64,000 nt of DNA from Kofleriaceae bacterium. GTDB lineage: Bacteria > Myxococcota_A > Polyangia > Haliangiales > Haliangiaceae. A model generated the notes under the pieces. The model did no database searches. It saw only the letters and a list, made by a program, of their open reading frames with translations, and was not told the DNA's origin. The stretch is from positions 545,664 through 609,663 of the forward strand of contig CAXNMK010000002.1 of NCBI GenBank assembly GCA_964203225.1. Direction: 5' to 3'. The position numbers were made by a program, and so were the translations under genes. Of the stretch, positions 157 to 51,649 are shown one piece after another. Numbering within the stretch: the first letter of the stretch is position 1; every line of letters begins with the position of its first letter.

Positions 157-1872
157 CTACACGTCGATGCGGGCGCTGAGGAAGCCCGCGCGACACGAGC
201 CGGCCCGCACCTCGAGGGAGCCGTGGCCGCGAACCAGGTAGCGCGCCCACGCAGCGTGCGTGGTGCCCCGGGTGCCAGGGTACGCTGGCAGGTTGAGGCC
301 GGTGTGCAGGCCGTGGCCCCAGCCGTCCAGGTGACCGAGCGCCTGGTGCGCGGCGCCGGCATCGACCAGCTCGCAGTCGCGCGCGGTGGCCTGGGCGTAC
401 ACGACCTCGTTCCAGTCGAGCGCCTTGGCCGAGGGCAGGCCGTAGCTGCCGAGGTAGCCGTCGTTGTAGACCTCGACGTCGACGCGGGTCAGGCCGCCGG
501 GCAGGGGCTCGCGCACCACGCGGCCGAGCTTGAGCCGGGGTGCGAGGGCCGCCACGCGCAGGGTCACGGCGGTCTGGCTCTCGCACACCGCCTCGAGTTC
601 GTGCAGCGGCGGGTTCCAGATCCCGATCCGCGGATCGACGCCGCCGATCTCGACGGGGCCGAGCTGCGGGTGATCGAACGGGCGCCACGCGGGGAACGTG
701 CGGCCCTCGTTCTCGTCCTTGTCCCACCACGCGAGCTTGACGATGTCGGCGCGCGACACGCGCTCGTAGTACTGCGCGAACTTCGGCGGGCGCTCCATGC
801 CGAGCCGCTTGAACAGGTCCCACAGCTCGATCACGTAGCCGACCGCGCCACGCTGGTTGTACGCGAAGTCGGTGAGGTCGCCGCGGAGCGGCTTGTCGGG
901 CTCGTAGAGGAACTCCTCGTGGCCGGACACCGTCGGGTAGCCGGTGTGCGTGGTCATCCACGCCTCGACCTGGCGGAACACCGCGAGGTCCTCCTGGTTC
1001 ATCTTGCTGTCGGCCGCGTGGCCGAGCGGGCGGATCAGGACGCCGCCGAACGTGTGGTAGTCGATCCACGCGAAGATCTCGGGGTGCGCGACGGCGAACT
1101 CCACCACGCCGCGCGACTCGGGCTCGCTCGCGGCGAACGGGCCCGCGCCGATCTGCTCGTGCGCCGGCGCCCACGACCACGGGAAGTTGCGGTTGAGATC
1201 GATCGGATTATCGCCGAGGAAGTGCGGCGACGGGATGCGCTTGCCGTCGAAGTGCTCGATCGTGCCCTCGGGGTAGAGCTTGTAGAACGGGCCCTCGTCC
1301 TCGAGGGTGCGCTCGACCAGCAGGCCCGGAAACTCCGGCGCCTCGACCAGCTCGCCGCCCGGATCGCGCACGCGCATCGCGAGCGCCAGGCCATCGCCGT
1401 CGATGTCCCCGGCCACCCACCGCGGGGTGCCGCGCTCCACGCGGTGGTCACGGGGCACCGAGCGCACGGTCTTGCCGAGGCGCAGTACGGCCTCGGCGCC
1501 ATCGGGCGACAGCCGCGGCGCGATGTAGAACAGCACCTCGCGCAGGCGCTGGACGATCGGGGCGGGCAGCTCGCTGTCCGCGGGCTCGAGGTGGAGCCGG
1601 AGCACGTCCTCGGCGATCGCCAGCGCCACGCTCGCGCCGCACAGCTCGGCGGCGTGCAGGTTGCCGTCGACCCACACCGCCGGGCGCACCCTGTCCGGCT
1701 CGAGGCCGACCGTCAGCACCCAGACGTCCCGGCCCTCGGGCGTCCGCGCGATCGAGGTCAGCCGGCACAGCTCGGGGTAGGCGGCGGCCCAGGCCTGGAG
1801 CTGGGCGGTCAGGTCCGCGTGGTCGAGGTAGGCGCGGCGGAACCCGCGGGACAGCGAGGCCAGGGTCGGCAT
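157..1872 (-). CDS. M14-family zinc carboxypeptidase (cytoplasmic, no signal peptide)
   Basis: ORF 157..2034(-). Residues such as DFAYNQRGAVGYVIELWD and the Zn-carboxypeptidase N-domain pattern (WVDGNLHAAE). Start placed at internal ATG (MPTLASLSRG...) at 1872 because the upstream extension is Arg/Ser-rich noise. Confidence 0.75.
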   Translation of the reverse strand: MPTLASLSRGFRRAYLDHADLTAQLQAWAAAYPELCRLTSIARTPEGRDVWVLTVGLEPDRVRPAVWVDGNLHAAELCGASVALAIAEDVLRLHLEPADSELPAPIVQRLREVLFYIAPRLSPDGAEAVLRLGKTVRSVPRDHRVERGTPRWVAGDIDGDGLALAMRVRDPGGELVEAPEFPGLLVERTLEDEGPFYKLYPEGTIEHFDGKRIPSPHFLGDNPIDLNRNFPWSWAPAHEQIGAGPFAASEPESRGVVEFAVAHPEIFAWIDYHTFGGVLIRPLGHAADSKMNQEDLAVFRQVEAWMTTHTGYPTVSGHEEFLYEPDKPLRGDLTDFAYNQRGAVGYVIELWDLFKRLGMERPPKFAQYYERVSRADIVKLAWWDKDENEGRTFPAWRPFDHPQLGPVEIGGVDPRIGIWNPPLHELEAVCESQTAVTLRVAALAPRLKLGRVVREPLPGGLTRVDVEVYNDGYLGSYGLPSAKALDWNEVVYAQATARDCELVDAGAAHQALGHLDGWGHGLHTGLNLPAYPGTRGTTHAAWARYLVRGHGSLEVRAGSCRAGFLSARIDV

Positions 1873-2322
1873 GTGGGACCGCACGTTACACGGTCTGCCG
1901 GGCCCCCGGCGGGGGCGGGATCCGTCGCCCGGTCGCGCAACCCCGCGGACCGGGGGGTGTCTGTCCGTGACGCCGGCCACGGACGACGATCTGCCCTGCA
2001 ACGACGTCCGTCTCCGGCCGACTGTTCCCTCCATACTCGAAGAACTCGACGCACGCGGCCCACCGCGGGAGATGACCCATGCTGCCCTTCACCTCGCTGC
2101 CTCAGGTCCGGATCGTGCGCAATGCCGGGCAGCTCGTGCCGCCGCCGCCGCCGCTGCCACAGGCGCCGGGCGTGACCGCCGCGCGGGCGCGCGAGGTGCT
2201 GGCCGTGGCCGTCGGGCTGTGGCCGTTGACCGGCGTGATGCTGCTGGCCATGTGCCTGCTGGTGATGGCGAGCCACTGGTCGTCGCCGTAGGCCGAACCG
2301 GACGCTTCGCTGTCCGCCTCCG

Positions 2323-3213
2323 TCAGTCGTCCTCGAGCGGCATCGCGCGGAGCGTGCGGGGCAGCTCGAGCAGGCTCTCGGTCGGTGAGCCGACCAGCAT
2401 CGCGGGGCTCATGTTGGTGAGGCCCCACGGCTCGACGGTGCCCGACGTGACGGCGAACGCGCCGCCATCGATCCGGCCGACGACGCCGAACCCCGACCTC
2501 ATCGGGACGCGCGCGCTCTCGATGACCAGCTCGGGCAGGCCGCTGACGTCGATCTCGATCAGGCCGCGCTCGCAGGTGAGCACGAGCCGGTAGTTGAGCA
2601 CGCGGCGCTCGAGCAGCAGCACGTTGCCGAGGCCCGCGGTGAATACCTCTTGCCAGCCCTCGGTGGGGCTGCCGTGCTGCGCGAGGTCCTGGAAGCCCAG
2701 GTAGAACAGCCGCGTGTCGTCGATCTTGCGCGCGAGCAGGCCGTGCGCGGTGATCACGCAGTCGAGGAAGCCCAGCTCGTGCAGCTGGGTCACGGCGGAC
2801 AGGTGATCGACCGTCCACCACGAGCCCGGGACGTGGGGCGCGCAGCCGAGGAACACGTTCTTGGCGGAGCTGCCCTTGAGCCACTCGGAGATCGCGCACG
2901 CGACCTCGGGCGCGCTGCCGGTATCGGACAGGCGCCGGTCGCCGTTCCACAGCACGCTGTCGCCGGGGATGCGGTGGATGGCGTCGAAGTGGAAGAACCG
3001 GCCCTGGAACGGCGAGACCAGGCTGAGCTTGTCGCCGACCTTGATGCTCGCGACCGCGTCGAGGTCCTCGGGCACCGCGATGTTGGTCTCGCCGCGCGGG
3101 TCGAGCGCGACGAACAGGAGGCCGCGCGGGGTCAGCCCCTGCTTGCGCAGCTCCTTGAGGCCGAGGATGACCGCCGCCGGATCCCGGTAGTGATACACCT
3201 TGGTGGCGAACAT
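2323..3213 (-). CDS. hypothetical protein (296 aa, no recognised domain)
   Basis: Clean 296-aa ORF with balanced composition, unlike the Arg/Ala-rich spurious frames around it. No motif I can name. Confidence 0.5.
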   Translation of the reverse strand: MFATKVYHYRDPAAVILGLKELRKQGLTPRGLLFVALDPRGETNIAVPEDLDAVASIKVGDKLSLVSPFQGRFFHFDAIHRIPGDSVLWNGDRRLSDTGSAPEVACAISEWLKGSSAKNVFLGCAPHVPGSWWTVDHLSAVTQLHELGFLDCVITAHGLLARKIDDTRLFYLGFQDLAQHGSPTEGWQEVFTAGLGNVLLLERRVLNYRLVLTCERGLIEIDVSGLPELVIESARVPMRSGFGVVGRIDGGAFAVTSGTVEPWGLTNMSPAMLVGSPTESLLELPRTLRAMPLEDD

Positions 3214-3255
3214 CGGACGGAGCCTAGCACGGGCCTCTCGGGTGCCGCGGGCGGT

Positions 3256-4815
3256 CTAGAGCATCACGCCGGTCAGCAGCGCGTTGGCGATGCCGAAGTA
3301 GATCAAGATGCCGCTGACGTCGACGAGCGTGGCGACGAACGGGGCTGACGCGCTCGCCGGGTCAAATCCGAGCTTGCGCAGGACGAACGGGAGCATCGCG
3401 CCCGCCAGCGTGCCGCACAGCACGCAGCCGACCACGGACAGGCCGGCGACCAGCGCCATCATCACGTAGTGATCGCCGTAGCGGCCCCACGTGCCCCACA
3501 GGGCGACGCGGCCGAGTGCGAGCACGCCGAGCACCGCCCCGAGCGCGAGCCCGGTCAGCAGCTCACGGCGGAGGATCAGCCACCAGTCGGCGGCGCGGAT
3601 CTCGCCGAGCGCCATCGCGCGGATCACCAGGGTCGAGGCCTGGGATCCCGAGTTGCCGCCGGTCGAGACGATCATCGGCAGGAACAGCGCGAGCAGCGGG
3701 ACGCGATCGATCTGGCCCTGGAACGACTCGAGGGCGGTCGCCGTCAGCATCGATCCGATCAGCAGCAGCACGAGCCACCCGAGCCGCTTCTTGATCATGT
3801 CGCCGCGGCTCGACTGCAGGTACGGCAGCTCGAGGGCGGCCATGCCACCGAACTTCTGGATGTCCTCGGTGGCCTCTTCCTGGACGACGTCGACGATGTC
3901 GTCGACGGTCACGATGCCCTTCATCCGGCCGCTCTGATCGATGACGGGGATCACGGTCATGTCGTGCTCGGCGAACACGCGCGAGACCGCCTCTTGATCC
4001 ATCTCGTCCGTGACGCGGACGACGTCGGTCTCCATGATCTCGGCGACGATCTTCTTGGGATCGGCGGCGAACAGGTCGCGGAACGACACCACGCCGAGCA
4101 AGCGCTGCTCGATGTCGAGGACGTACGCGTAGTAGATGGTCTCGATCTCGTCGCGGGCCTGGCGCCGCAGGTAGCTGATCGCCTCGTCGGCGGTCATCGC
4201 CGGGCGCAGGCGCGCGTAGCGGGTCGACATCAGGCCGCCGGCCTCGTCCTCGGCGTACGCGAGGAGCGCGGTGACCTCCTTGCGCGTCGGCGCGTCGAGG
4301 AGGGCGAGCAGGTGCAGGCGCTGGGTCTCGTTCCCGACCTGCTGGATCACGTCGGCGACGTCGTCGGGCTCGAGCAGCCGCATCCACTGGCGGCGCTGGC
4401 CAGGGCGGAAGTGCAGCAGCAGCTGTGCGTGATCGGAGGCGGGCAGGGCGACGAAGAACTCCTCGGCGTCCTCGCGCGGCAACACCCGGAGGCCGTCGCC
4501 GCGCTCGTCGAGATCGAGCAGCGGCCACGCGTCCCGGAGGTCCTCGCTCGACAGCTCGTCCTCGGGCGGGGGCCCCGATCCCGCGGCGTCCGTCGAGGGC
4601 ATCGGCGGCATGACCATGGACCGCTTCATGCGCCCGGACGTCTGGACATCCGGGAGGGCCGTCACGTCGGTGTCGTCGCCGCGGCTCTCGGCGACCGCGC
4701 GGATCTCGGCCGCGACCTTGCTCGCCTCCTGCGGGTCGAGCATCGAGATCTCGCCCGTCGCGTTCTCCAGCCGGTCGGACACCGGCTCCGGCACGCTGTC
4801 GTCGGGCGAAGCCAT
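3256..4815 (-). CDS. mgtE: magnesium transporter MgtE (N-domain, CBS pair, C-terminal TM domain)
   Basis: 519-aa ORF. CBS-like segments (VLDIEQRLLGVVSFRDL, VIDQSGRMKGIVTVDDI) are followed by a 5-TM MgtE-type C-terminus (IVSTGGNSGSQAST). Confidence 0.85.
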   Translation of the reverse strand: MASPDDSVPEPVSDRLENATGEISMLDPQEASKVAAEIRAVAESRGDDTDVTALPDVQTSGRMKRSMVMPPMPSTDAAGSGPPPEDELSSEDLRDAWPLLDLDERGDGLRVLPREDAEEFFVALPASDHAQLLLHFRPGQRRQWMRLLEPDDVADVIQQVGNETQRLHLLALLDAPTRKEVTALLAYAEDEAGGLMSTRYARLRPAMTADEAISYLRRQARDEIETIYYAYVLDIEQRLLGVVSFRDLFAADPKKIVAEIMETDVVRVTDEMDQEAVSRVFAEHDMTVIPVIDQSGRMKGIVTVDDIVDVVQEEATEDIQKFGGMAALELPYLQSSRGDMIKKRLGWLVLLLIGSMLTATALESFQGQIDRVPLLALFLPMIVSTGGNSGSQASTLVIRAMALGEIRAADWWLILRRELLTGLALGAVLGVLALGRVALWGTWGRYGDHYVMMALVAGLSVVGCVLCGTLAGAMLPFVLRKLGFDPASASAPFVATLVDVSGILIYFGIANALLTGVML

Positions 4816-4867
4816 CGAGCCACACCCTGCCCAATCGCGCGTGCTTCGTCCAGTGTGGACCGGCGAT

Positions 4868-5050
4868 TCAGGCCGCGGCGCGGGTCGCCAGCTCCTGTGG
4901 GTGGTCCTCCCGCGCGCCGACCGTCCAGGAGCCCTCGGCGCCGCGGAACGTCGGGATGCCGCTCTCGGCGGACACCCTGGCCTCGGTCAGGGCGATCACG
5001 CCCCCCGGCCGGGCCAGCGCGCGGCGACACGCGTCGAAGATGTCTTCCAT
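4868..5050 (-). pseudogene. remnant of Sir2/CobB NAD-dependent deacetylase (N-terminal ~60 aa only)
   Basis: Translation MEDIFDACRRALARPGGVIALTEARVSAESGIPTFRGAEGSWTVG matches the Sir2 NAD-binding motif (GAGISAESGIPTFRG...W). Both Gly of the GAG are substituted. The ORF stops after 60 aa and abuts the mgtE start, so there is no room for the rest of a ~240-aa sirtuin. Confidence 0.4.
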
Positions 5051-5073
5051 CGCGCCGGTGCTACAATTTCGGT

Positions 5074-5598
5074 ATGTCGCGCTGGAGCCCGTCTGTCGTC
5101 CTCGCGATCGCGGCGTCGCTCGCTGCCGGTGCGTGCTCGCGGCCGAGCGAGGAGAGCGGCGCCAAGAAGTGGCCCGCCGCGCCACCTCCGCCGGACAACC
5201 CGCCACCTTCCGAGCTCGCGATCCTGGTCCAGGTGGATGGCGGCGCCCACGCGTCGATCACCGCGGCCACGCTGGCCACCGCGAAGCCGGACTTCCGCGC
5301 CAAGGATCGCCAGGCCTGGCTGATCCCGACGCTGATCCCCGAGGCCGCCGCCGCGGGAGTGGTCGTCGAGGCGGTGTCGCCCACGGGCGTCAGCGTGAAG
5401 TTCGAGCGGCCCCGGACGGGCGGGATCGAGCCGGTGCTGTTCCTGACCCGCCGTGGCGAGGTGATGGTGTCCGCGATCGATCCCAAGGATCCGTTCCCGG
5501 ACTACCACGGCCAGGGCGGGCGGCTGCACCGCTCGGGTGACTCGTGGCCGCGGGTCCAGCCGGTCGCGCGCCTCGTGATCACGCGACCCACGCCGTGA
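5074..5598 (+). CDS. putative secreted lipoprotein, hypothetical (174 aa)
   Basis: ATG at 5074 followed by MSRWSPSVVLAIAASLAAGAC (signal peptide with a Cys at the lipobox position). It is the in-frame tail of the long ORF 3469..5598(+), whose upstream part is antisense to mgtE and spurious. Confidence 0.55.
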   Translation: MSRWSPSVVLAIAASLAAGACSRPSEESGAKKWPAAPPPPDNPPPSELAILVQVDGGAHASITAATLATAKPDFRAKDRQAWLIPTLIPEAAAAGVVVEAVSPTGVSVKFERPRTGGIEPVLFLTRRGEVMVSAIDPKDPFPDYHGQGGRLHRSGDSWPRVQPVARLVITRPTP

Positions 5599-6538
5599 TG
5601 CCGTCATCGGCGGGCGTGATCAGCACGCGCGCCCCGGGGGGCGGTGTTCCGAAGCCGAGCCGCGTCACGCCGAGCCGCGTCCCGAGCGCATGCGCGACCC
5701 AGCCGAACGTGTGGCGCGCATTGATCTCGCACAGCGGGTGGAGCCGGCGCTCGTCACCGGCGCTGTAGACGAACGCGTCGATCGCGAACGGCCCCGCGTG
5801 GCCACGCGCGTGGAGCGCCGCCCCGACCGCGTGGACCGTGGCTTCGAGGCGGGCGACCTCGGTGGCGGTGAGCGCGGGAGGCCGGAGGTCGATGCCGAGG
5901 AACGTGCCGCGGGCATCCGTGACGAGGCCGTGGGGGGCACGCGCATGGACCTGCCCGTCGACGATCGAGGCGCACACGCCGACGTCCAGCACGCGCTCGA
6001 CCCACGGCTCGAACACCAGCGCGCCCGCGCGCGCGAGCAGCCGGCCGAGGCGCGTGGCCTGCTCGACGGTGGGTGCGCCCTCGCCGTGGCAGCGATCGCG
6101 GCCCGCGGTGGTCCACGGGGACTTGGTGACCCAGCGCGGGCCGAGCGCCGCCCTCGCGGCGGGCGCCACCTCGTCGATCGCGTGGATCACGCGCGCGCCC
6201 GGCAGGGCGCAGCCGAGCTGCGCGGCGAGCGCGAGGGCGAGCCGTCGATCGTTGACCGCGCGCGCCTCCGGGGAGGCCCACGCGAGGGTGGGCGCCGGGG
6301 GCGTGCCGGTGCGCATCTCGGGGTGCGGCAGGCCCGGGACCCGGGCGAGGCGCCCGCCGTCGATCGCGGCGGGGGCCCACACCTCGACCGCCGGCGCGTC
6401 CACCGGGGCGAGCGCCGCGAGCAGCGCCGCGTAGTGGCTGACCCGCGTCGCGATCCCACCGGGGAGCGAGCCGCCGGCCCACCGCGCCTCGCAGTCGAGG
6501 TTCGCGTGGATCACGAAGGGCGCGGGGTGCACGGGCAC
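5579..6538 (-). CDS. ATP-grasp fold protein (putative ligase), function unknown
   Basis: 319-aa ORF. WVTKSPWTTAGRDRCHGEG resembles the ATP-grasp lysine/Gly-rich loop, and EINARHTFGW resembles the E-x-N catalytic motif. It sits 10 nt downstream of the DUF455 gene, so likely co-transcribed. Confidence 0.5.
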   Translation of the reverse strand: MPVHPAPFVIHANLDCEARWAGGSLPGGIATRVSHYAALLAALAPVDAPAVEVWAPAAIDGGRLARVPGLPHPEMRTGTPPAPTLAWASPEARAVNDRRLALALAAQLGCALPGARVIHAIDEVAPAARAALGPRWVTKSPWTTAGRDRCHGEGAPTVEQATRLGRLLARAGALVFEPWVERVLDVGVCASIVDGQVHARAPHGLVTDARGTFLGIDLRPPALTATEVARLEATVHAVGAALHARGHAGPFAIDAFVYSAGDERRLHPLCEINARHTFGWVAHALGTRLGVTRLGFGTPPPGARVLITPADDGITAWVA

Positions 6539-6547
6539 GCGCGCAGC

Positions 6548-7364
6548 CTACCGCGGGGCGCCGCTCGGCCGCGTCGGATCGATCGCGGCGAGGGCGTCGA
6601 TGAATGCGGCGTCGAGGCCAGCGCGCTCGCGGGCCTCGCGATCGAACCGGGCGCCGCGGGCCCGGCGCGGGCCGAGCGGGAACTGGACGTGGTCGAGGTA
6701 GGCCTGCCAGGGCGCGGCGTCGGGCGCGAGGCGGCGCAGCCACACGTACGCGAAGTGGACGTGGGCGATCTCGTCGGCGTGGACGCGGTCGAGGGCGGCG
6801 GCGGTGGCGAGGTCCCCGCATGCGCGCGCGGCGGTGGCGTAGTCGCCGGCGAAGTCGAGGTTGGCGTTCTCGAACGTCAGGCCCATGGCGCACACGAACT
6901 CGAGGGGCCCGGCGAGGTGATCGAGCTTGTTCCAGAAGTGGCCGGTGACCGGCAGATCCCCGAACGTCACGCCGTGCGCGGTGAGGCGCTCGCGGTAGAG
7001 CTCGAAGTGGCGCTGCTCGTCGGCGACGATCGCGACGAGGCCACGACGGAAGCCGGCCGGGGCATCGGGGTAGGCGAGGACCGCCCACGCGAACAGCTCG
7101 ATCGCCTGGAGCTCGTGGTTGGCGAGGGCGTGGAGGATGCGGGCGCGCTGGCTGGGATCGCGCATGCCCGCGACGGGCGGGACCTTGGCCTGGCGACCGG
7201 GGACGATCGCGAGGCTGGGTGGCCGGCCCGGCCCCTCCGGGCGCAGCGGTGGCCCGGCGTCCTCGAGGACGAGTTGCTCGGGGCCGGGCGGCGGCACGAG
7301 CTTGCCCGCGAGGGTGTCGGCGGTCACGATCGCGTACGCGTAGGCCCGCGCCGTGGTGCTCACG
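6548..7364 (-). CDS. DUF455 / ferritin-like di-iron family protein
   Basis: ORF 6548..7675(-). The conserved part (ILHALANHELQAIELFAWAVLAYPD ... DEQRHFELYRERL ... DEIAHVHF) shows ferritin-like ExxH pairs. Start set to GTG at 7364, just after the upstream gene stop at 7374; the longer Pro/Ala-rich extension overlaps the upstream gene and is rejected. Confidence 0.6.
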
Positions 7365-7373
7365 ACGGGGACC

Positions 7374-8738
7374 TTAGCGCCGGCGGCGGCCGGCGAGCCC
7401 GAGCACGCCGAGCACGCCGAGGGTGAGCGCGGCGGGGACGGCGGGCAGGCTGCCACCGGCGCTGCAGCAGCCGGCGTCGTCGGACGCCCAGCACACGCCG
7501 CCATCACCGGCGGCGAGGCACGAGAACCCGCTCGGGCAGCTGCCCGCGGACAGGTCGCAGCTCTCGGCGCATGCCTTGTCGCCGGTCGACGAGGTGACGC
7601 AGCTGAACGACAGGCACTCGGCGTTCGCGTTGCAGAACGCGCCGAGGCCACCCGGCGCGTCGGGGCCGGCGACACACACGCCCATCACACACACGTCGTC
7701 GCCCTCGCAGCCCTTCGACGCGGTGCACGGCGGGCCGACGTCGACGTCGAGCATCGCGCTGGCCGGGGTGCCCTGGACGTCGAACGCCTTGAGCTCGATG
7801 GCGTGGGCGCCCTGCGCGATCGTCCTCGGGGCGGCGACGGTGTACGGCGGGGTGGAGCTCGCGACGCCGGTGTCGACGCCATCGATCCACAGCTCGACGC
7901 GGTCGATGCCGACGTCGTCGGTGGCGGTCACGCGGACGAAGAACCCCGGCTGGACCTCGGCGCCCGCGGACGGGGACTGGATCGCGATCGTCGGGGCGGT
8001 CGGCTCGCCGGGGCCGAACATGTCGAGGATGTGCTGGTAGGAGTTCTGCGTGGGCTGGTTGGTGCAGCGGCAGCTGGTGGCCTGGAACTCCCCGCACGGC
8101 GAGTCGGTGGCCTGGAACCGCTTCAGCGACGGTCCCCCGTTGAGGTAGGTCATCGGATCGGCGGCGTTGTACTCGTGCTCGAGGCCGAACGCGTGCGCGG
8201 TCTCCTGCGCCGCGGTCCAGCACAGGGCGTCGGCGTCCGGGCCGTAGACGTCGAACGTGAACGAGATCGCGTTGGGGATCTCGTCGCACGTGAACGGCGC
8301 CACGCCGCCCGCGCCCGCGAGGTCCGCGCGCAGCTCGGTGGCGCGGCCGCCGACCATGTTCTCGTAGTGCGGGACGTTGCCCGGATCGACGTCGGTGACG
8401 CCGATGTTGAACGGCGCGTAGGTCGCGCGTACGCAGGTCATCACCCGCTGCCAGACCTCCTCGCTCTGCTTGAAGCCGGTCAGCGCGACCTCGGCGTCGG
8501 GGATGCTCGAGGTGTCGAGCCGCGCATCCTCGATGCCGGGCCGGACGGTGCACCCGGCGAGCGGGCAGCGGTGCATGTAGATCAGGCGCGACGCCGGCGC
8601 GGCGGCCGGCGGCGTCTGCACCGGCACGTCGACCGTCACGGGCTGCGGGCGGGGCAACGCCTGCGCGCGCGCCGCGGGGCTGGCGAGGAGCAGGCTCAGG
8701 GCGGCGAGCCCGAGGGCAGCGGGGCGGCAGGTGCTCAT
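7374..8738 (-). CDS. secreted metzincin-like protein, Ig-like domain, Cys-rich region, MYXO-CTERM sorting tail (paralog 1)
   Basis: Signal peptide MSTCRPAALGLAALSLLLASPAARAQA. Motif AQETAHAFGLEHEY then DPMTY. Bacterial Ig-like segment (VTATDDVGIDRVELWIDG). Cys-rich block, then GGVCW...GCCSAGG + hydrophobic stretch + RRRR terminus, which is the MYXO-CTERM pattern. ATGA overlap with the upstream paralog stop (8735-8738). Confidence 0.75.
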   Translation of the reverse strand: MSTCRPAALGLAALSLLLASPAARAQALPRPQPVTVDVPVQTPPAAAPASRLIYMHRCPLAGCTVRPGIEDARLDTSSIPDAEVALTGFKQSEEVWQRVMTCVRATYAPFNIGVTDVDPGNVPHYENMVGGRATELRADLAGAGGVAPFTCDEIPNAISFTFDVYGPDADALCWTAAQETAHAFGLEHEYNAADPMTYLNGGPSLKRFQATDSPCGEFQATSCRCTNQPTQNSYQHILDMFGPGEPTAPTIAIQSPSAGAEVQPGFFVRVTATDDVGIDRVELWIDGVDTGVASSTPPYTVAAPRTIAQGAHAIELKAFDVQGTPASAMLDVDVGPPCTASKGCEGDDVCVMGVCVAGPDAPGGLGAFCNANAECLSFSCVTSSTGDKACAESCDLSAGSCPSGFSCLAAGDGGVCWASDDAGCCSAGGSLPAVPAALTLGVLGVLGLAGRRRR

Positions 8739-10222
8739 GACCGGCGGCGCCGGCGGGAGAACACGAGCGCGGCGAACGTCAGCCCGAGCGTGATGGCGCC
8801 GCCCTGGCCCCCCGCGGAGCAGATGCCACCCGTGCCGTCGTCGTAGCCGGGCCAGCACAGGCCGGTGCCGGAGGCGTCGAGGCAGCCGAAGCCCTCGGGG
8901 CACTGGCCCTCGCCGAGTTCGCACAGCTCGACGCAGTACTTGTCGGTGCCGCTCTGGGCGCACGTGCCCGACGAGCAGTCGGGGCCCGACATGCACGGCT
9001 GGCCCAGGCCCCCCGGGGCGTTGGGGCCGGTGACGCAGCGGCCGCCGATGCAGGTGTCGGTGTCCTTCGAGCAGTCCGCGGGCTTGCCGCACGGCGCGCC
9101 GATCACGACCTGGGTCTCGGCGGAGGCCGAGGTGCCGAACACGTCGTAGGCGGTGGCGCGGACCCGGTGCGTGCCATCGGCGAGCGTGGTCGGGGCGTTG
9201 AATGCGTACGGGCCGTTGACGAGCGTGCCGGTGTTGACGTTGTCGACGAACACCTCGACGCGGCCGATGCCGACGTCATCCGTCGCCGTCACCACGATCG
9301 GGAACCCGGGCGCCACGCTCGCGCCGAGCTTGGGATTGGTGATGGTCACCGTCGGCGGCGTCGGCGTGCCCGCGCCGAACAGCGCCGTGATGATCTCGAA
9401 CGAGTTCTGGGTGGCGCGGCCGGTGCAGGCACACGCGTGGAGCTGCTGGTTGCTGCCCGTGCAGGTCGCGCCGAACGGGGACTGGCCGCCGACGCAGTCG
9501 CTGCCGCAGTTGACCTCGGCGTCCTTGAACCGGCGGCGGCCGTTGTACGGGAAGTAGGTCAGCGGGTCGCTGGCGTCCGTGACGTGATCGAGCGCGAACG
9601 AGTGCGCGATCTCCTGCGAGGCGGTGGCGCAGATCTCGTCGACGTCGGAGCCGTAGACCTTCTGGAATGCGAACACGAGCGAGTTCGGGATGTACGAGAC
9701 GCCGCAGTTGAACGGCGACACGCCGCCGGTGTTCGAGTTCATGCCGAGGTCGGTCGGAGAGCCGGCGATCATGATCTCGAAGTGCGGCCCCGGGCTCGGG
9801 TTGGTCGTGGTGACCTCGACGCCGAACGGCGCGAACGTCTGCTTCACGCAGTCGACCACCTGGGTCCACACCGCGTCGCTCGCGTTGAACGCCGTCAGCG
9901 TGCGCGTGGCATTGATGCCCCACATACCCTGGAAGCCGCTGCCGTCGAGCGAGCTCGCCTGGCCCGGGCGCACGATGCAGCCGTTGGGCTTGCAGTTGTT
10001 GAGGAAGATCTTGTTGGAGTTGACCGCGTGGGCGACGGTGCCCGGGTCGATGTCCATCAGCACGCGGTCGGTCCGCGGGCGGGACACCAGCGCCAGCGGG
10101 GCGGTGTCCTCGGTGATCGAGGCGCCCTCCGAGGGCGACCAGGTCACGCCGTCGGCGATCGCAGGTGCGACGCCGAGCAGCAGGGAAGCGGTGGCGACGA
10201 CACGGACCGGAACGCGCTTCAT
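8735..10222 (-). CDS. secreted metzincin-like protein with MYXO-CTERM (paralog 2)
   Basis: Start ATG 10222 with AAGGG 8 nt upstream. Signal peptide MKRVPVRVVATASLLLGVAPAIA. Motif SQEIAHSFALDH...DPLTYF. Same Ig-like, Cys-rich and MYXO-CTERM architecture (GGICSAGG...FSRRRRRS). Confidence 0.75.
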   Translation of the reverse strand: MKRVPVRVVATASLLLGVAPAIADGVTWSPSEGASITEDTAPLALVSRPRTDRVLMDIDPGTVAHAVNSNKIFLNNCKPNGCIVRPGQASSLDGSGFQGMWGINATRTLTAFNASDAVWTQVVDCVKQTFAPFGVEVTTTNPSPGPHFEIMIAGSPTDLGMNSNTGGVSPFNCGVSYIPNSLVFAFQKVYGSDVDEICATASQEIAHSFALDHVTDASDPLTYFPYNGRRRFKDAEVNCGSDCVGGQSPFGATCTGSNQQLHACACTGRATQNSFEIITALFGAGTPTPPTVTITNPKLGASVAPGFPIVVTATDDVGIGRVEVFVDNVNTGTLVNGPYAFNAPTTLADGTHRVRATAYDVFGTSASAETQVVIGAPCGKPADCSKDTDTCIGGRCVTGPNAPGGLGQPCMSGPDCSSGTCAQSGTDKYCVELCELGEGQCPEGFGCLDASGTGLCWPGYDDGTGGICSAGGQGGAITLGLTFAALVFSRRRRRS

Positions 10223-10338
10223 GAGGCACCCTTTCATAGCTGGTAAGGCCGCGCGGTTCCTAGCGGAAACTGCTGGCTTCGTCCAGCCGATGGAGGCCCC
10301 GCGTTCGCACCCACCCGGGGGGGCCCAGCGCGCGGTCC

Positions 10339-11742
10339 TCAGCGTCGACGGCGGCGGGGGATCACGAGGGCGCCGAGCGCGAGGGCGAGCAGGGAGATCC
10401 CGCCACCACTCCCGCTCGCGGCACAGCCACCGTCGTCCCCGGCGCCAGGCCAGCACACGCCGCCGTCACCGGCCGGGATGCAGCCGAAGTCGCCCGGGCA
10501 CCCGTCCTCGTCGGGGTTGCACACCTCGACGCAGTACGCCGCGCCGGTGCCGTCGCCGCCGCACTGGCCGGACAGGCAGTCGCTGTTGCCGACGCACGTG
10601 GTGCCGAGGCCGCCGTCGACGCCGCTGCCCGCGACGCACCGACCCTCGACGCACACCTGGCCGTCACCGGGGCAGTCACCCGAGCCACCGCACGGCTTGC
10701 CGATCGAGGCGGTGAGCTGCGTGCTGGTGGGCGTGCTCGCGATGTCGTAGGCGGTGACCTTGATGATGTGGTTGCCGTTGGCGAGCGCGGTCGGCGCGTT
10801 CCACACGTACGGCGCGGCGGTCAGCGTGTTGATCAGGCGGCCATCGATGCGGAGCTCGACCTTCGAGATCGCGATGTCATCGGTCGCCTCGGCGCGGATC
10901 GGGAACTCGGCGGCGAGGCGCGCCCCGGCGGCGGGCGTGGTGATCTCGACGGTGGGCGGGGTGGGCGCGCTCGGCCCGAACGTGTCCAGGATCTCGCGGA
11001 AGCTGTTCATCGTGCTGCCGCCGCACTGGCAGCCGCGCGCGCTGAACTCGCCGCAGGCACCGGCCTCGTTCTGGAACACCTTCCGGCTCGGGCCGGACTG
11101 GAGGTAGGTCATCGGATCGCGGTTGTCGAACTTGTGGTCGAGGCCCCACGAGTGTGCGGTCTCCTGCGCGACGGTCCAGCAGATGTCGTCGACGCTGCCA
11201 CCGTAGACGTTGGCGAAGCTGAACGAGATGCCGCCGGTGATGAAGCCGCAGCTGAACGGCGACACGCCGCCGACGCCGTTCTGGAACCCGACGTCGGTGG
11301 GGCGGCCGGCGGCGATCGCCATGTGGTAGCCGGCGGTGGCCGGGCGCTCGGTCACGATCTCGACGTCGAACGGCGCGTACGTGCGCTTGACGCAATCGAC
11401 GACCTGCGCCCAGTTGTCGTCGCTGTACGCGTACGGCTGGACGGTGGAGGTCGCGTCGATGATCGACGAGCGGTTGGTGTGCGCGTTCTCGCCACCCGGG
11501 GACAGCTGGCAGCCGTTGGGCTTGCAGTTGTTCAGGTAGATGACGTTGTTCTCGACGGCCGACACGCCGTCACCCGTGAACGTCGGGAGGCCGGGATCGA
11601 CCACCACGTACGTGGGCTGCGCGCGGCTCCATGGAGTGACGAGCGGGTTCGCGGGCGCATCGGCCACGTTCCCCTGGACGTCGGCGTGAACGAGGCCGAC
11701 CGGGGCGGTCAGGGCGGCCAGGACAGCGAGGGCGCGCTTCAT
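10339..11742 (-). CDS. secreted metzincin-like protein with MYXO-CTERM (paralog 3)
   Basis: Signal peptide MKRALAVLAALTAPVGLVHA. Motif AQETAHSWGLDHKF...DPMTYL. Ig-like domain (EATDDIAISKVELRIDG). Cys-rich block, then GGVCWPG...GGCAASGSGG + TM + RRRR. Confidence 0.75.
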   Translation of the reverse strand: MKRALAVLAALTAPVGLVHADVQGNVADAPANPLVTPWSRAQPTYVVVDPGLPTFTGDGVSAVENNVIYLNNCKPNGCQLSPGGENAHTNRSSIIDATSTVQPYAYSDDNWAQVVDCVKRTYAPFDVEIVTERPATAGYHMAIAAGRPTDVGFQNGVGGVSPFSCGFITGGISFSFANVYGGSVDDICWTVAQETAHSWGLDHKFDNRDPMTYLQSGPSRKVFQNEAGACGEFSARGCQCGGSTMNSFREILDTFGPSAPTPPTVEITTPAAGARLAAEFPIRAEATDDIAISKVELRIDGRLINTLTAAPYVWNAPTALANGNHIIKVTAYDIASTPTSTQLTASIGKPCGGSGDCPGDGQVCVEGRCVAGSGVDGGLGTTCVGNSDCLSGQCGGDGTGAAYCVEVCNPDEDGCPGDFGCIPAGDGGVCWPGAGDDGGCAASGSGGGISLLALALGALVIPRRRRR

Positions 11743-11887
11743 GTCCCGGTGTTGTAGCGGACCTGACACCGCTGTCACCATGGACCACCCCTGTCTTCTG
11801 CTCGCCCTCCCTGAGAAGGCGGGACCGCACTCCTGCGGCTCGCACACCTCGCGGGCAAGTCGTTGGGATCGCTGGGCGTTTGACCGG

Positions 11888-12877
11888 TCAGAGCACGGCG
11901 GCGGTGACGATGAACCCGACGTAGGCGAGCACCAGCAGGGCACCCTCCGCCCGGGAGATCCGCCGATCCCCGCGCAGGACGAGCACGCCGAGCAGCGTGA
12001 TCACGAGCAGGCCGACAAGCTCCGTCATGTGGGGCCGGCCGACCAGCGTGATGGGCTGGAGGTAGCCGGTGATCCCGAGCACGAGGAACACGTTGAGCAG
12101 GTTCGAGCCGATCACCGAGCCGATCGCGAGGGCGGCGTGGCCGCGGCGCGCGGCGATCAGCGAGGCCAGCAGCTCCGGTAGCGCGCAGCCGAGGCTGATC
12201 ACGGTCAGGCCGAGCATGCGCTCGCTCATCCCGATCACGCCCGCGAAGCCGCGGCCGCCGCGCACGAACAGGTCCGAGCCGATCACGAGCAGGACCAGGC
12301 CGATGCCGGTCATCAGCAGGGCGGCGCCCGTCGACGCTCGAGGTCGCGCGCGGCCGCCGACGAGCGCGCCGCTCTCCTCGGCGCGGCGGCCCTCGGTGTC
12401 GAGGTTGTCCTCGTCGGCGCTCATCCGGGCGGACACGGTCAGGGTCACGATCGTGAACACCACCGCGCAGCCGATCAGGAGCGCGCCCTCGAGCTGGGTC
12501 AGGCGGCCGTCGCGGAGCAGGAGAGGCATCGCGATCACCGAGCCCACGAGGATCGGCAGCTCGCGGCGGATCATGCGCCCGTCGATCGTCGGCGGGGACA
12601 CCAGCGCGGTCAGCCCGAGGATCAGCGAGATGTTGGCGGCGCACGAGCCGATCACCGTGCCGAGGGCGATCGGCTGGTGGTGCGTGAGCGCGGTCTTGGT
12701 CGCGATCGCGAGCTCGGGAGCGGACGCGCCGTACGCGACCACGGTCAGCCCGATCACCAGCGGCTTGACGCCGAACGTGCGCGCGAGCGAGGCGGAGCCC
12801 CGGATCAGCCACTCGGCACCCCAGTACAGGATCGCGATCCCGAGGATGACCTGCGTGATGTTGAGGGCGGTGCCCAC
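11888..12877 (-). CDS. Ca2+/Na+ antiporter, CaCA (YrbG-like) family
   Basis: 329 aa, 10 predicted TM. Two alpha-repeat signature segments (AYGASAPELAIA and ISLGCALPELLASL) are typical of cation/Ca2+ exchangers. Confidence 0.8.
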   Translation of the reverse strand: MGTALNITQVILGIAILYWGAEWLIRGSASLARTFGVKPLVIGLTVVAYGASAPELAIATKTALTHHQPIALGTVIGSCAANISLILGLTALVSPPTIDGRMIRRELPILVGSVIAMPLLLRDGRLTQLEGALLIGCAVVFTIVTLTVSARMSADEDNLDTEGRRAEESGALVGGRARPRASTGAALLMTGIGLVLLVIGSDLFVRGGRGFAGVIGMSERMLGLTVISLGCALPELLASLIAARRGHAALAIGSVIGSNLLNVFLVLGITGYLQPITLVGRPHMTELVGLLVITLLGVLVLRGDRRISRAEGALLVLAYVGFIVTAAVL

Positions 12878-12902
12878 GTCGGCGACAGTGTCGCCCCCGG
12901 CG

Positions 12903-12966
12903 GCGGCGGGCGCAAGCGAGCTGGTCGGGGCGTCGGGGCGTCGGGGCGTCGGGGCGTCGGGGCGTC
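12903..12966. repeat. tandem 8-nt repeat (GTCGGGGC) x8, intergenic between the SCO1-like gene and the CaCA gene
   Basis: gtcggggc repeated 7 times perfectly plus one variant. Unit length is not a multiple of 3. Eight consecutive GGGG tracts on the plus strand. Confidence 0.9.
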
Positions 12967-12978
12967 GGGGCGTCGGGA

Positions 12979-13749
12979 CTATGAGCCGCCGAACTTGTAG
13001 CTGCCGGCGGTGCGCGCGAGGTAGCGGGCGTGGCGGAGCAGATCGTCGAGCTTCTGCACCTCGCTGGAGTCGTAGACCCCGCGGATCCTCAGGCTGCCGT
13101 CGACCAGCACGAAGTAGCCGTTATGGGAGATCGCGGGCGCGCCCGAGGGCGTCTGGCCTTCGAGGACCATCGAGTTCATGAACGGGCCCTCGACCAGCGC
13201 CTTGACCAGCTCCTCGGGGCCGGTGACGAACCGCCACTTGTCGGCGAGCGCGCCGTAACGCTGGGCGTACGCGGCGAGGCGCTCCGGCGTGTCGTACGTG
13301 GGATCGACCGACACCGACATCAGCTTGATCGGGACCGCGCGCCGGTCGAGCAGCTTGTCCTGCAGGCGCTGCAACTTGAGCGAGGTGATCGGGCAGACCG
13401 TGTCGCACCGGGTGAACACGAAGTTGACGATCGTCGGGTGACCGCGCAGGGCGTCCTCGGTGAACGGCCGGCCCTGCTCGTCGACGAGGCTGAACGCCGT
13501 CACGGTGCCGAGGTCCGGCAGCTCGAGGTGGTCTCCGCGCTTGATCAGCGTGGGGATGAGCACGAACGGCACGACCGCGATCACGAGCAGCGCGAGCATG
13601 ACGAGGAGCAGCTTCTTGCCCGGCACCCCGGAGGGGCGCGGCGCGAGGGCGGCGGGCGGGGTCACCGGCGGACCCTGGCAGATCCGCGGGCCCTTTGCAC
13701 GTGCGCGGGGGTGCGGCAGGTCACCGCGGGTACGTGCTACCGAGGACAT
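12979..13749 (-). CDS. SCO1/SenC family copper chaperone (thioredoxin-like, membrane-anchored)
   Basis: TM segment KKLLLVMLALLVIAVVPFVLIPTLI followed by a thioredoxin-fold domain with CDTVCP (CxxxC) and the HNGYFVLVD region typical of SCO1. Start uncertain (13749-13863). Confidence 0.7.
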   Translation of the reverse strand: MSSVARTRGDLPHPRARAKGPRICQGPPVTPPAALAPRPSGVPGKKLLLVMLALLVIAVVPFVLIPTLIKRGDHLELPDLGTVTAFSLVDEQGRPFTEDALRGHPTIVNFVFTRCDTVCPITSLKLQRLQDKLLDRRAVPIKLMSVSVDPTYDTPERLAAYAQRYGALADKWRFVTGPEELVKALVEGPFMNSMVLEGQTPSGAPAISHNGYFVLVDGSLRIRGVYDSSEVQKLDDLLRHARYLARTAGSYKFGGS

Positions 13750-13891
13750 CGAGGCACCGCACGAGCACGCCCCGTTCCTGTGTGGGTCCATGCAGGCAAC
13801 CCATGAGTTCGAGTGGTTCGCGGCGCGGCGCGGCGGGTGGCCGGTGGCCGGTGGGCCAGTCATGGCAGAACCTATCGCCAGCCGCGCTGGC

Positions 13892-18577
<4,686 letters not shown>

Positions 18578-18601
18578 CCCCGAGCTCCGCGTGATTTTAG
18601 C

Positions 18602-19264
18602 TCACAGCGGCGTCACGACGAGGTTGTCGAACCAGGTATCGGTCTCCCAGTTGTTGACGGCGAAGTACTCGTGACCGGGCCCCTCGAGGGCGTCCTTGTC
18701 GTCGAGCTCGAGGAACGGGGCGTCCATGTCGTTGACGAACCACCGGACCACGCTGCCGGTGCGCTCGATCTTCCAGTGGTAGTGGCGGTTCGGGATCACC
18801 TTGACATCGGCCCGCGAGACCAGCTCCCGGCCATGCTCGTCCATCCGCGCGATCATCGACTTGCTGTTGCTCCAGCCGCCGAAGATCACCATGTATGCGG
18901 TCGCCAGGTAACCGCCGCGGTCCGGGTCGTAGGAGCTGCCGTCGCCGAACACCTCGACCTTGATGTCGCCGCGGGGCTCTGTCGACCACACGTCGACCTC
19001 GATCCGCACGTTGCGCGGCAACTTCTTGCGCAGCCACAGCGGGTGGTTATAGCCGCCCTTCGCCGACAGGGCGCCGTCCACGATCCGGTACGCGTCGCCG
19101 GTCGCGTACCAGTTGGTGCCGAGCTCGGCGCGGTCAAAGCTGTCGTAGAACGGCTGCGTGATCGGGGGGGCGTCCTTGACCTTGCAGGCAGGGAGGCAGG
19201 CCAGCCAAGCGGCTGACACCACGGCGGGAGTGACCAGGGCGCGCACGCCGCACACTGTAGCCAA
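18602..19264 (-). CDS. putative secreted/lipoprotein, hypothetical (220 aa)
   Basis: N-terminal signal with LACLPAC. Balanced composition with many Trp/Tyr; beta-rich. Lies 24 nt upstream of the giant STK on the same strand. Confidence 0.55.
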   Translation of the reverse strand: MATVCGVRALVTPAVVSAAWLACLPACKVKDAPPITQPFYDSFDRAELGTNWYATGDAYRIVDGALSAKGGYNHPLWLRKKLPRNVRIEVDVWSTEPRGDIKVEVFGDGSSYDPDRGGYLATAYMVIFGGWSNSKSMIARMDEHGRELVSRADVKVIPNRHYHWKIERTGSVVRWFVNDMDAPFLELDDKDALEGPGHEYFAVNNWETDTWFDNLVVTPL

Positions 19265-19394
19265 ACCCCCGGGAGTGATCTCTCGGATCGCTAACGTATT
19301 CGATCGCTTGGCGATCTGACCGTTGCCCGGTGTCAGGGGGCCCCTTTATGGTCAACGTGTGGAAGGCACGCTGTCGCTGTTCGAGTGGTCACCA

Positions 19395-19448
19395 CCGGTG
19401 GGTCCGGTGGGTCCGGTGGGTCCGGTGGGTCCGGTGGGTCCGGTGGGT
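19395..19448. repeat. tandem 9-nt repeat (GTGGGTCCG) x6
   Basis: Directly visible. The three frames read (VGP)n, (WVR)n or (GGS)n. Sits between the lipoprotein gene and the exonuclease gene. Confidence 0.9.
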
Positions 19449-28179: not shown

Positions 28180-28345
28180 CTCCGAGCGTGCGGGAGCGGC
28201 CTGGTCCCGTCAAGCCGTTGGTGGGGTAGGTTCGCCCGAAACGACCCAACCCGATCCAGTGCCGAGCCGAACCGAATCCGAAACGCCAAAGGCGCCACAT
28301 CGACTCTCGTCGAAATGGCGCCCTGGTGGCGTGAGCCGGACGAGT

Positions 28346-32966: not shown

Positions 32967-35092
<2,126 letters not shown>

Positions 35093-35096
<4 letters not shown>

Positions 35097-35620
35097 GGGG
35101 TCGCCACGCCGCCATCGCCGCCATCGGTGCCGTCCGCGAGCACGGGCGAGGCGAGCACCCGCGACAGGCTGAGATCGAGCCGGCTGTCCGCGTCTCGGAC
35201 GATGCTGTCGAGGGCGTCGTCGGCGAGCTCGAACGCGGCGATCGCGCGGGCATCGCCGGTGGCGCAGCACCGCGCCAGCAGCAGGTCATCGAGGCGCAGC
35301 CGCGCGAGGGCCGCATCGGCGTCCTTGTGGGCGGCGAGCCCGCTCGCCAGCGCCTCGATCAGCGCGCCATCGGTGACCGCGAAGGCCTCCGGCCAGCGTG
35401 CGCGCGCCGCGGCCAGCGCCTCGCCACGCCGGACATCCAGGCCAGACAGGGCAAGCGCGGCCTGCGACTCGGCAGGGGCGCGCTCCACGAGGTGGGTCCA
35501 CCACGACGACACGGGGACCGAGCATGCCATGGCGCGTCGCTGCCCGGCCGGCCCAAACGCGCGGTCGTGAAGGGCGATCGAGCGCGCGTCGATGCCCGGC
35601 CGCCTGCGTGGCTCGGGCAC
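35093..35620 (-). CDS. hypothetical protein, possibly co-translated partner of the downstream STK
   Basis: Ala/Leu-rich, not obviously an ECF sigma factor. Its stop overlaps the kinase GTG in a GTGA arrangement. Weak. Confidence 0.3.
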
Positions 35621-51648: not shown

Positions 51649-51649
51649 G

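Follow-up and report, generated by a model that had tools for sequence, protein, structure and literature searches.

Metzincin-Like Putative Surface Proteins with Glutamine in Place of the First Metal-Binding Histidine, Encoded Next to a DUF455/ATP-Grasp Gene Pair in Kofleriaceae

The hallmark of metzincin metalloproteases is a set of three zinc ligands (three His, or His/His/Asp), and it is the first of these residues that is replaced by Gln in each of three paralogous proteins encoded side by side in the genome of a Kofleriaceae bacterium (Myxococcota_A). The segment that we analyzed (the window) comprises 64,000 nucleotides (nt) of contig CAXNMK010000002.1 (assembly GCA_964203225.1, positions 545,664 to 609,663), and its three paralogous genes, here called P1, P2, and P3, are followed on the same strand by genes for a DUF455 protein and an ATP-grasp ligase. 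This locus raises the question of what kind of protein is built around such a metal site, and whether the two downstream genes act in concert with it. The answer that we favor, with moderate confidence, is that P1–P3 are surface proteases with a metal site altered by Gln and that the downstream pair is an independent module.

In this region (72% G+C), where spurious open reading frames (ORFs) are abundant, coding frames were chosen by their G+C content at third codon positions (GC3) and translational starts by inspection of start codons. As originally predicted, three tandem, co-oriented paralogs are joined by DUF455 and ATP-grasp genes, all five on the minus strand and in frames with a GC3 of 0.87–0.94: P1 (10339–11742; 467 amino acids), P2 (8735–10222; 495 amino acids), P3 (7374–8738; 454 amino acids), the gene for the ferritin-like DUF455 protein (6548–7363; 271 amino acids; GTG start), and that for a PGM1/BesA-type ATP-grasp ligase (5579–6538; 319 amino acids). 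The ATG start codon of P3 overlaps the TGA stop codon of P2 as ATGA, which bears out the coupling of neighboring paralogs that had been noted. The close coupling of P3 to DUF455 holds as well, except that the gap between the P3 stop codon and the DUF455 GTG measures 10 nt and not 9 nt; a gap of 9 nt separates the DUF455 stop codon from the ligase start codon. The array is probably co-transcribed with the DUF455 and ATP-grasp genes. A scan of the array region for promoters and terminators found none, a result that is uninformative at 72% GC.

The motif QExxHxx[G/A]xxH, followed by DP[M/L]TY, is present in all three proteins exactly as had been claimed. In P1, it reads QETAHSWGLDHKFDNRDPMTY (amino acids 193–213; 11104–11166, minus strand; Q193-E194-T-A-H197-S-W-G200-L-D-H203, D209-P-M211-T-Y213), in P2 QEIAHSFALDHVTDASDPLTY (amino acids 203–223; 9554–9616, minus strand), and in P3 QETAHAFGLEHEYNAADPMTY (amino acids 178–198; 8145–8207, minus strand), so that three subtypes can be told apart (QETAHSWGLDH..DPMTY, QEIAHSFALDH..DPLTY, and QETAHAFGLEH..DPMTY, respectively). 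None of them conforms to the extended zinc consensus HExxHxxGxxH/D, the first His being Gln while the Glu and the two other His are retained. The Gln codon is CAG in P1, P2, and P3, a single base away from the His codon CAC. The Met-turn after the third His is DPMTY in P1 and P3 and DPLTY in P2; eight residues lead from the third His to the Met, a spacing that we take to be that of the published archaemetzincin motif, and a Tyr follows two residues beyond. This M-x-Y arrangement presumably resembles the Met-turn of astacins and serralysins, whose Tyr serves as a fifth zinc ligand. In an alignment of 46 sequences, E194, H197, H203, D209, P210, T212, and Y213 (P1 numbering) are invariant.

The motif resides in an N-terminal domain (N-domain) for which neither Pfam nor NCBIfam offers a model; in these two collections, P1–P3 match only the immunoglobulin-like (Ig) model Big_7 and, weakly, sorting-tag models. 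No Pfam peptidase model, Peptidase_M11 included, was matched even at E ≤1, and searches of the PDB sequences with phmmer and with a family profile returned Ig modules only, plus a chance-level "zincin-like" match (E 0.98). Structure prediction, however, gives the N-domain a metzincin fold: a beta-sheet and an active-site helix that bears the xExxH motif, with the QExxH segment of P1 placed on the predicted helix 184–197 and the loop that follows it, where metzincins have HExxH. The fold matches of this domain are MMP-2, MMP-9, MMP-13, atrolysin, and ADAM-8; in a Foldseek comparison with the PDB, MMP-13 was matched with an E-value of 2e-3, and the other matches concerned mostly the Ig domain. 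Relatives that carry His at the first ligand position (ligand 1) read AHExGHSxGLxHE (e.g., the matrixin-like AHEAGHSLGLDHE) and reach the gathering cut-offs of Reprolysin_3 or Reprolysin_4, so that not only the fold but also the sequence links the family to the metzincin clan. P1–P3 are thus members of this clan through their fold and their His-bearing relatives, yet the His ligand by which the clan is defined is missing from them, and no curated family model matches them.

How large this group of proteins is became evident when a profile confined to the catalytic domain was used in a full HMMER scan, which superseded a word-indexed search that had yielded 61 matches and had missed true orthologs. 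Clustered at 50% identity, the family comprises at least 2,994 representative clusters (E ≤1e-3), 865 of them with E ≤1e-30. The named matches among the 61 all come from Myxococcota, mostly from Kofleriaceae, and their annotations read hypothetical, Ig-like, or MYXO-CTERM protein; among these, the family is seen only in Myxococcota, to which it is apparently restricted. In 182 full-length domains, ligand 1 is Q in 162, H in 15, M in four, and N in one. The 150 representatives inspected were the nearest ones to a profile rich in Q, and the Q:H ratio of the family as a whole may therefore differ. The rest of the site hardly varies: the catalytic Glu is found in 179 of the 182 domains, the second His ligand in 182, the third in 181, the Met-turn Met in 174 (Leu in the remaining eight), and the Met-turn Tyr in 180. 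Among the inspected members, the sequences thus point to Gln as the dominant state of ligand 1, and it is the residue found in all 102 readable motifs of the syntenic arrays described below. Since Q lies only one base from H, its persistence would reflect selection. Divergence is greatest in the P2 subtype, whose orthologs have A, T, S, R, K, or L at the position of the motif Gly and often Leu in place of the Met-turn Met. Taken together, the QExxH family is a large, previously unrecognized metzincin family with Gln as first ligand that no Pfam or NCBIfam model recognizes, and the proposal of a distinct, uncharacterized metallopeptidase-like family is supported.

Some members depart from the architecture of P1–P3. 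Three metagenomic proteins of about 1000 amino acids (P0210, P0312, and P0322) have Met at ligand 1 (MEIAHSFGLDHE..DPMTY) and carry the domain near the C-terminus, with no MYXO-CTERM tail; in P0210, the one scanned against Pfam, the catalytic domain follows repeated CarboxypepD_reg domains. Two others, P0184 (813 amino acids) and P0254 (764 amino acids), contain at least two tandem QExxH domains each (two and three matched stretches) and a longer spacer in front of DPMT.

What would such a site do? A literature search for the motif QEXXHXXGXXH found one characterized precedent, the VMP3 protein of Volvox carteri, which, in the account given by a citing preprint, has this very motif and is an active enzyme with a preference for copper (Heitzer & Hallmann 2002, cited in bioRxiv 10.1101/2020.06.30.165720). 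The catalytic residues of the QExxH proteins are kept family-wide and Q is fixed in the 102 array motifs, which argues that the site is selected and functional and has not decayed. Because of this conservation and of the VMP3 precedent, we favor active metalloproteases with an altered metal site. P1–P3 would then be endopeptidases and not inert binders, with a metal that may be held by the amide oxygen of Gln, by two His, and possibly by the Met-turn Tyr; as in VMP3, the Gln ligand could change which metal is preferred or alter the reactivity of the site. Between the catalytic head and its membrane anchor, the Ig and Cys-rich modules would serve as a stalk.

The best of the alternatives, which we nevertheless consider rather unlikely, is that these proteins are ordinary zinc metzincins in which Gln itself serves as a zinc ligand, or in which the site is water-mediated or assisted by the Tyr, metal preference and function being unchanged. 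Apart from ligand 1, the site is indeed canonical in all its residues, and so is the fold. Moreover, the H-variants are scattered across a neighbor-joining tree on which ligand 1 changed at least 12 times, a distribution suggesting that the Q and H states are functionally close. Equivalent states that lie one base apart should, however, mix more evenly than is seen in the arrays, where Q is without exception. In addition, ligand 1 covaries with the x4 residue of the motif (QExAH in 138 of the 162 Q members, HExGH in 11 of the 15 H members), and Met, a soft ligand atypical for zinc, occurs at this position as well.

A bolder form of the reading that we favor, drawn by analogy and in our opinion doubtful, would make these proteins the first metzincins of bacterial origin that depend on copper or on some other metal than zinc, in which Q, H, or M at ligand 1 tunes the metal and the presence of a gene of the SCO1 copper-chaperone family two genes upstream is not accidental. 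Gln, His, and Met are all good copper ligands. If true, thousands of Myxococcota surface proteases would have undergone the same His-to-Gln switch as Volvox VMP3. Candidate evidence for copper from the gene neighborhood did not stand. The linkage to SCO1 was rejected as a sign of copper loading, the SCO1 gene being kept in loci that have no QExxH genes, and so were copper-related neighbors of QExxH homologs located outside the arrays, three of four such sites having no metal-related neighbors. At the fourth (L001), two weak Metal_resist matches and a two-component system are present: the solitary homolog P0007 lies between a cluster with an ECF (extracytoplasmic function) sigma factor and a HisKA/response-regulator pair, with weak Metal_resist matches flanking both (L001:3549–5754 and 8968–11243). 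The orthologous site L089 has the sigma factor and two-component genes and no Metal_resist match.

Besides the failure of these two lines of evidence, several points weigh against our preferred interpretation. Gln is a poor and rare zinc ligand, with which catalysis may be reduced or lost. P2 has Ala in place of the motif Gly and Leu in place of the Met-turn Met. The prevalence of Q was determined on representatives chosen for their similarity to a Q-rich profile, as stated above, and the copper idea is based on one eukaryotic analog that belongs to an unrelated metzincin family. To these is added, for the independence of the downstream pair, that a functional operon, too, would show genes so tightly spaced and an array that in Kofleriaceae nearly always lies directly upstream of DUF455.

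A pseudoprotease or adhesin, in which the Gln abolishes metal binding or catalysis and the dead metzincin scaffold serves as a surface module for binding or recognition, is in our judgment improbable. Such a role would fit a family in which 89% of the inspected members have Gln at the place of a canonical zinc ligand and in which the P2 subtype has lost the motif Gly and the Met-turn Met besides; the combination of an Ig domain, a Cys-rich stalk, and a surface anchor also resembles surface receptors such as TraA. A dead site would, however, not be expected to keep its Glu, its two His, its Met, and its Tyr across a diverged family at the frequencies given above, or to exchange Q, H, and M at ligand 1 while everything around it stays constant, and a natural QEXXHXXGXXH protease is, by the published description cited for VMP3, active. 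The alternative in the original prediction, catalytically altered binding proteins, is accordingly the less likely one in view of this almost invariant set of residues.

The notion of a surface protease depends on the remainder of the polypeptide. P1–P3 align from end to end and are 41–45% identical (44–45% to P1), and all have the signal peptide, the Ig-like domain, and the Cys-rich module that had been reported. Their common layout consists of a signal peptide, the unannotated N-domain of ~200 amino acids, a Big_7 Ig domain (E-values of 1e-11 to 9e-18 over P1–P3; 1e-13 in P2 and 1e-11 in P3), a Cys-rich module with 12 invariant Cys, and a MYXO-CTERM-like tail. In P1, these parts correspond to amino acids 1–20 (signal peptide), about 62–258 (metzincin-like domain; 10969–11559), 263–329 (Ig domain; 10756–10956), about 348–432 (Cys-rich module; 10447–10701), and 438–467 (tail; 10342–10431), all on the minus strand; P2 has an additional Cys-rich insertion on the C-terminal side of the Met-turn. 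MYXO-CTERM sorting tags have three parts, namely a signature that contains Cys, a transmembrane helix, and an Arg cluster on the cytoplasmic side, and are handled by the myxosortase pathway (PMC11980579). The tails of all three proteins show this tripartite layout (Cys motif, hydrophobic helix, RRRR cluster), so that the predicted MYXO-CTERM tail holds in its architecture; by hidden Markov model (HMM) score, it holds for P2 only, which exceeds the cut-off of TIGR03382 (19.1 versus 15.85), whereas P1 (14.7) and P3 (14.3) fall just below it and all three (15.0–17.3) stay below the cut-off of 20 for TIGR03901. Because the three tails match the MYXO-CTERM architecture, surface anchoring is likely, and P1–P3 are probably secreted and held at the cell surface by a lipid anchor via this tail.

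Whether the downstream genes belong to the proteases was addressed by a scan for the ligase family with one genome per GTDB species. It yielded 79 loci, nearly all from Kofleriaceae or Haliangiales metagenome-assembled genomes (MAGs), which we annotated with home-made HMMs. Over dozens of species-level Kofleriaceae/Haliangiales genomes (L008–L086), the gene order of a block of ~20 kb (157–18577 in the window) is kept, at ligase identities of only 35–66%: SCO1, Na/Ca exchanger, QExxH genes, DUF455, ligase, further genes, MgtE, an M14 carboxypeptidase, and a large Ser/Thr kinase that contains AAA_16 and TPR domains. The window shows exactly this order. The first gene of the block is the conserved SCO1/SenC copper-chaperone family gene (12979–13863, minus strand; PF02630, E 7e-26), and immediately upstream of the array is the gene for a membrane protein of the Na+/Ca2+ exchanger family (11888–12877, minus strand; PF01699, E 8e-54).

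Within this conserved frame, the number of QExxH genes varies. Among the loci with both flanks, three copies are found in 25, two in 10, one in six, four in four, and none in five; these last, all from Kofleriaceae, have intact exchanger and DUF455 flanks, and in most of the QExxH-free loci, the exchanger gene directly adjoins DUF455. DUF455 and ligase genes, on the other hand, are adjacent in nearly all of ~70 loci. On contigs labeled Planctomycetota or Acidobacteria, the pair occurs with unrelated neighbors (a TPR protein, RNase H) and without any QExxH gene. Conversely, where QExxH homologs lie at other sites in genomes of Kofleriaceae and Myxococcales, neither DUF455 nor the ligase is encoded nearby. 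In seven loci (L013, L017, L018, L020, L023, L051, and L052), the ligase gene is inverted relative to DUF455 and the block and is still the immediate neighbor of DUF455. The labels Planctomycetota and Acidobacteria (L070, L073, L080, and L083) rest on MAG binning only. Short contigs from a MAG labeled Dokdonella sp. (L028) and from others labeled Proteobacteria (L020, L032, and L039) show the Kofleriaceae-type QExxH-DUF455-ligase arrangement at ligase identities of 51–58%, and these are probably mis-binned or loosely labeled.

The DUF455 and ligase genes are thus an autonomous, conserved two-gene module and not a dedicated partner of the proteases, and the protease array, variable in copy number, resides as a lineage-specific tenant in what is probably the same transcription unit. 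The linkage of DUF455 and ATP-grasp genes to such protease genes, proposed as a test, does recur within Kofleriaceae, yet only as part of the ~20-kb conserved gene order; because the entire block from SCO1 to the kinase is collinear, the adjacency of array and pair carries little specific information. That the two enzymes modify P1–P3, or that the proteases process or export what these enzymes make, in the manner of peptides that are made by ribosomes and modified after translation (RiPPs) or graspetides, as the original prediction had speculated, is very unlikely: the co-orientation, the 10- and 9-nt gaps with no terminator-like site found, the fact that most Kofleriaceae loci have the array directly upstream of DUF455, and the ligation of a ribosomal peptide to an unusual amino acid by PGM1, the nearest structural relative of the ligase, speak for it, but five Kofleriaceae loci and other phyla have the pair and no QExxH genes, QExxH homologs elsewhere lack the pair, the pair stays constant while QExxH copies vary from zero to four, the ligase is inverted in the seven loci, and P3, DUF455, and the ligase lie too close together to leave space for a precursor gene.

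The two proteins of this module can be classified further. The predicted DUF455 protein matches PF04305 with 165.7 bits (cut-off 34.3) and, weakly, bacterioferritin, and the pattern E84/E116xxH119/E166/E199xxH202 of its predicted di-iron site is conserved across phyla in an alignment with orthologs from distant loci, all of which upholds the ferritin-like, di-iron-like assignment. A literature search for DUF455 found no functional study. The 319-amino-acid ligase has no Pfam or NCBIfam match; it was its fold, in which the E-x-N Mg site and the conserved Lys are both present, that confirmed the ATP-grasp assignment. Its invariant residues are K139, E177, D254, E271, N273, and R275, the latter three being part of a CEINAR motif. 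The closest structural relative is PGM1, which couples a ribosomal peptide to an unusual amino acid, and the ligase is not of the graspetide macrocyclase type (MdnB/MdnC/PsnB). As the original prediction had stated, no precursor peptide is visible: the 10- and 9-nt gaps leave no room for one and the ligase gene is followed by a convergent lipoprotein gene, small ORFs elsewhere not having been searched exhaustively. In distant loci, no third conserved gene accompanies the pair. The module may combine a ferritin-like di-iron oxygenase with an amide ligase of the PGM1/BesA type, which would probably act on a small molecule or a short peptide. One locus, on a related metagenomic contig, has a gene for a fused Rieske/FAD-dependent pyridine-nucleotide reductase (506 amino acids) between DUF455 and the ligase (L007:4468–5988); this protein could plausibly supply a di-iron oxygenase with electrons, which fits the idea of DUF455 as an oxygenase in need of electrons.

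The predicted lipoprotein just mentioned is encoded on the plus strand (5074–5598; 174 amino acids; MSRWSPSVVLAIAASLAAGAC...; GC3 0.91), its gene overlapping the 3' end of the ATP-grasp gene by 20 nt, and a gene of similar size and the same orientation is present at this position in L006 and L007. Three more Ser/Thr-kinase-like ORFs with kinase HMM matches are found farther along the window, all on the minus strand (26632–28209, 32970–35285, and 50212–52155).

The comparison of loci also bears on the history of the array. Orthologs of the P1, P2, and P3 type, with the same subtype motifs, are recognizable in other Kofleriaceae genomes, so that the triplication predates the divergence of these species. 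The array with its subtype-specific motifs recurs in dozens of related genomes, and therefore the observation is not one of chance. On the tree of the ligases, loci without QExxH genes are scattered, which speaks for repeated loss. Reconstructed in this way from sequence relationships, P1–P3 represent an old array that later expanded and contracted (zero to four copies) and not a recent tandem duplication. In the closest syntenic contig (L005; 3 Mb, ENA), the P1, Na/Ca-exchanger, and MgtE genes are in pieces (8884–11415 and 17767–19436); these breaks look like frameshift errors of a long-read assembly and not like real pseudogenes.

No new principle has so far been established by the P1–P3 family. 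In the inspected members, ligand 1 is Gln as a rule, with His and Met recurring in its place within a site that is otherwise near-invariant, and the family thereby provides a natural series for studying how the identity of a first-shell ligand sets the metal selectivity and activity of a metzincin. The proteins are also a candidate class of surface proteases for myxobacterial biology, such as predation and matrix remodeling. The DUF455 protein and its PGM1/BesA-like ligase, a compact two-gene module found across phyla, could offer a first functional handle on DUF455.

Known systems resemble the elements of this locus to different degrees. The ligase shares 15–17% identity with the peptide ligase PGM1 of pheganomycin biosynthesis and with BesA (L-propargylglycine–L-glutamate ligase); it is ~100 residues shorter, lacks a Pfam match, and has the DUF455 ferritin-like protein as its conserved partner. 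With MYXO-CTERM proteins of the TraA type, which are sorted by the myxosortase MrtX, P1–P3 have the N-terminal signal peptide and the tripartite C-terminus in common, whereas the cargo domain of TraA is unrelated and P1 and P3 score just under the curated HMM cut-offs. The archaemetzincins (AmzA; PDB 2x7m, 3lmc) show 11–15% identity and differ by their canonical first His, by being cytosolic single-domain proteins, and by a Cys4 structural zinc site that is not evident in P1–P3. Matrixins (M10) and adamalysins/reprolysins (M12B) share the predicted fold, and the H-variant relatives reach the Reprolysin models; P1–P3 themselves match none of the models of these families, their Met-turn is much nearer to the third His, and no pro-domain or cysteine switch was recognized in them. 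The closest parallel at the metal site is offered by the VMPs of Volvox, extracellular-matrix metalloproteinases which, as far as the citing preprint describes them, have Gln for the first His and retain the Glu, the two other His, and the Gly; their motif QEXXHXXGXXH is found in P1 and P3, P2 having Ala for the Gly, and both groups of proteins, by the same description, are extracellular and modular. The VMPs are eukaryotic proteins of another metzincin family, and homology of P1–P3 to gametolysin and the VMPs was not detected with Pfam (E ≤1); for this reason, the likeness between the algal and the myxobacterial proteins is best understood as convergence at the level of the motif.

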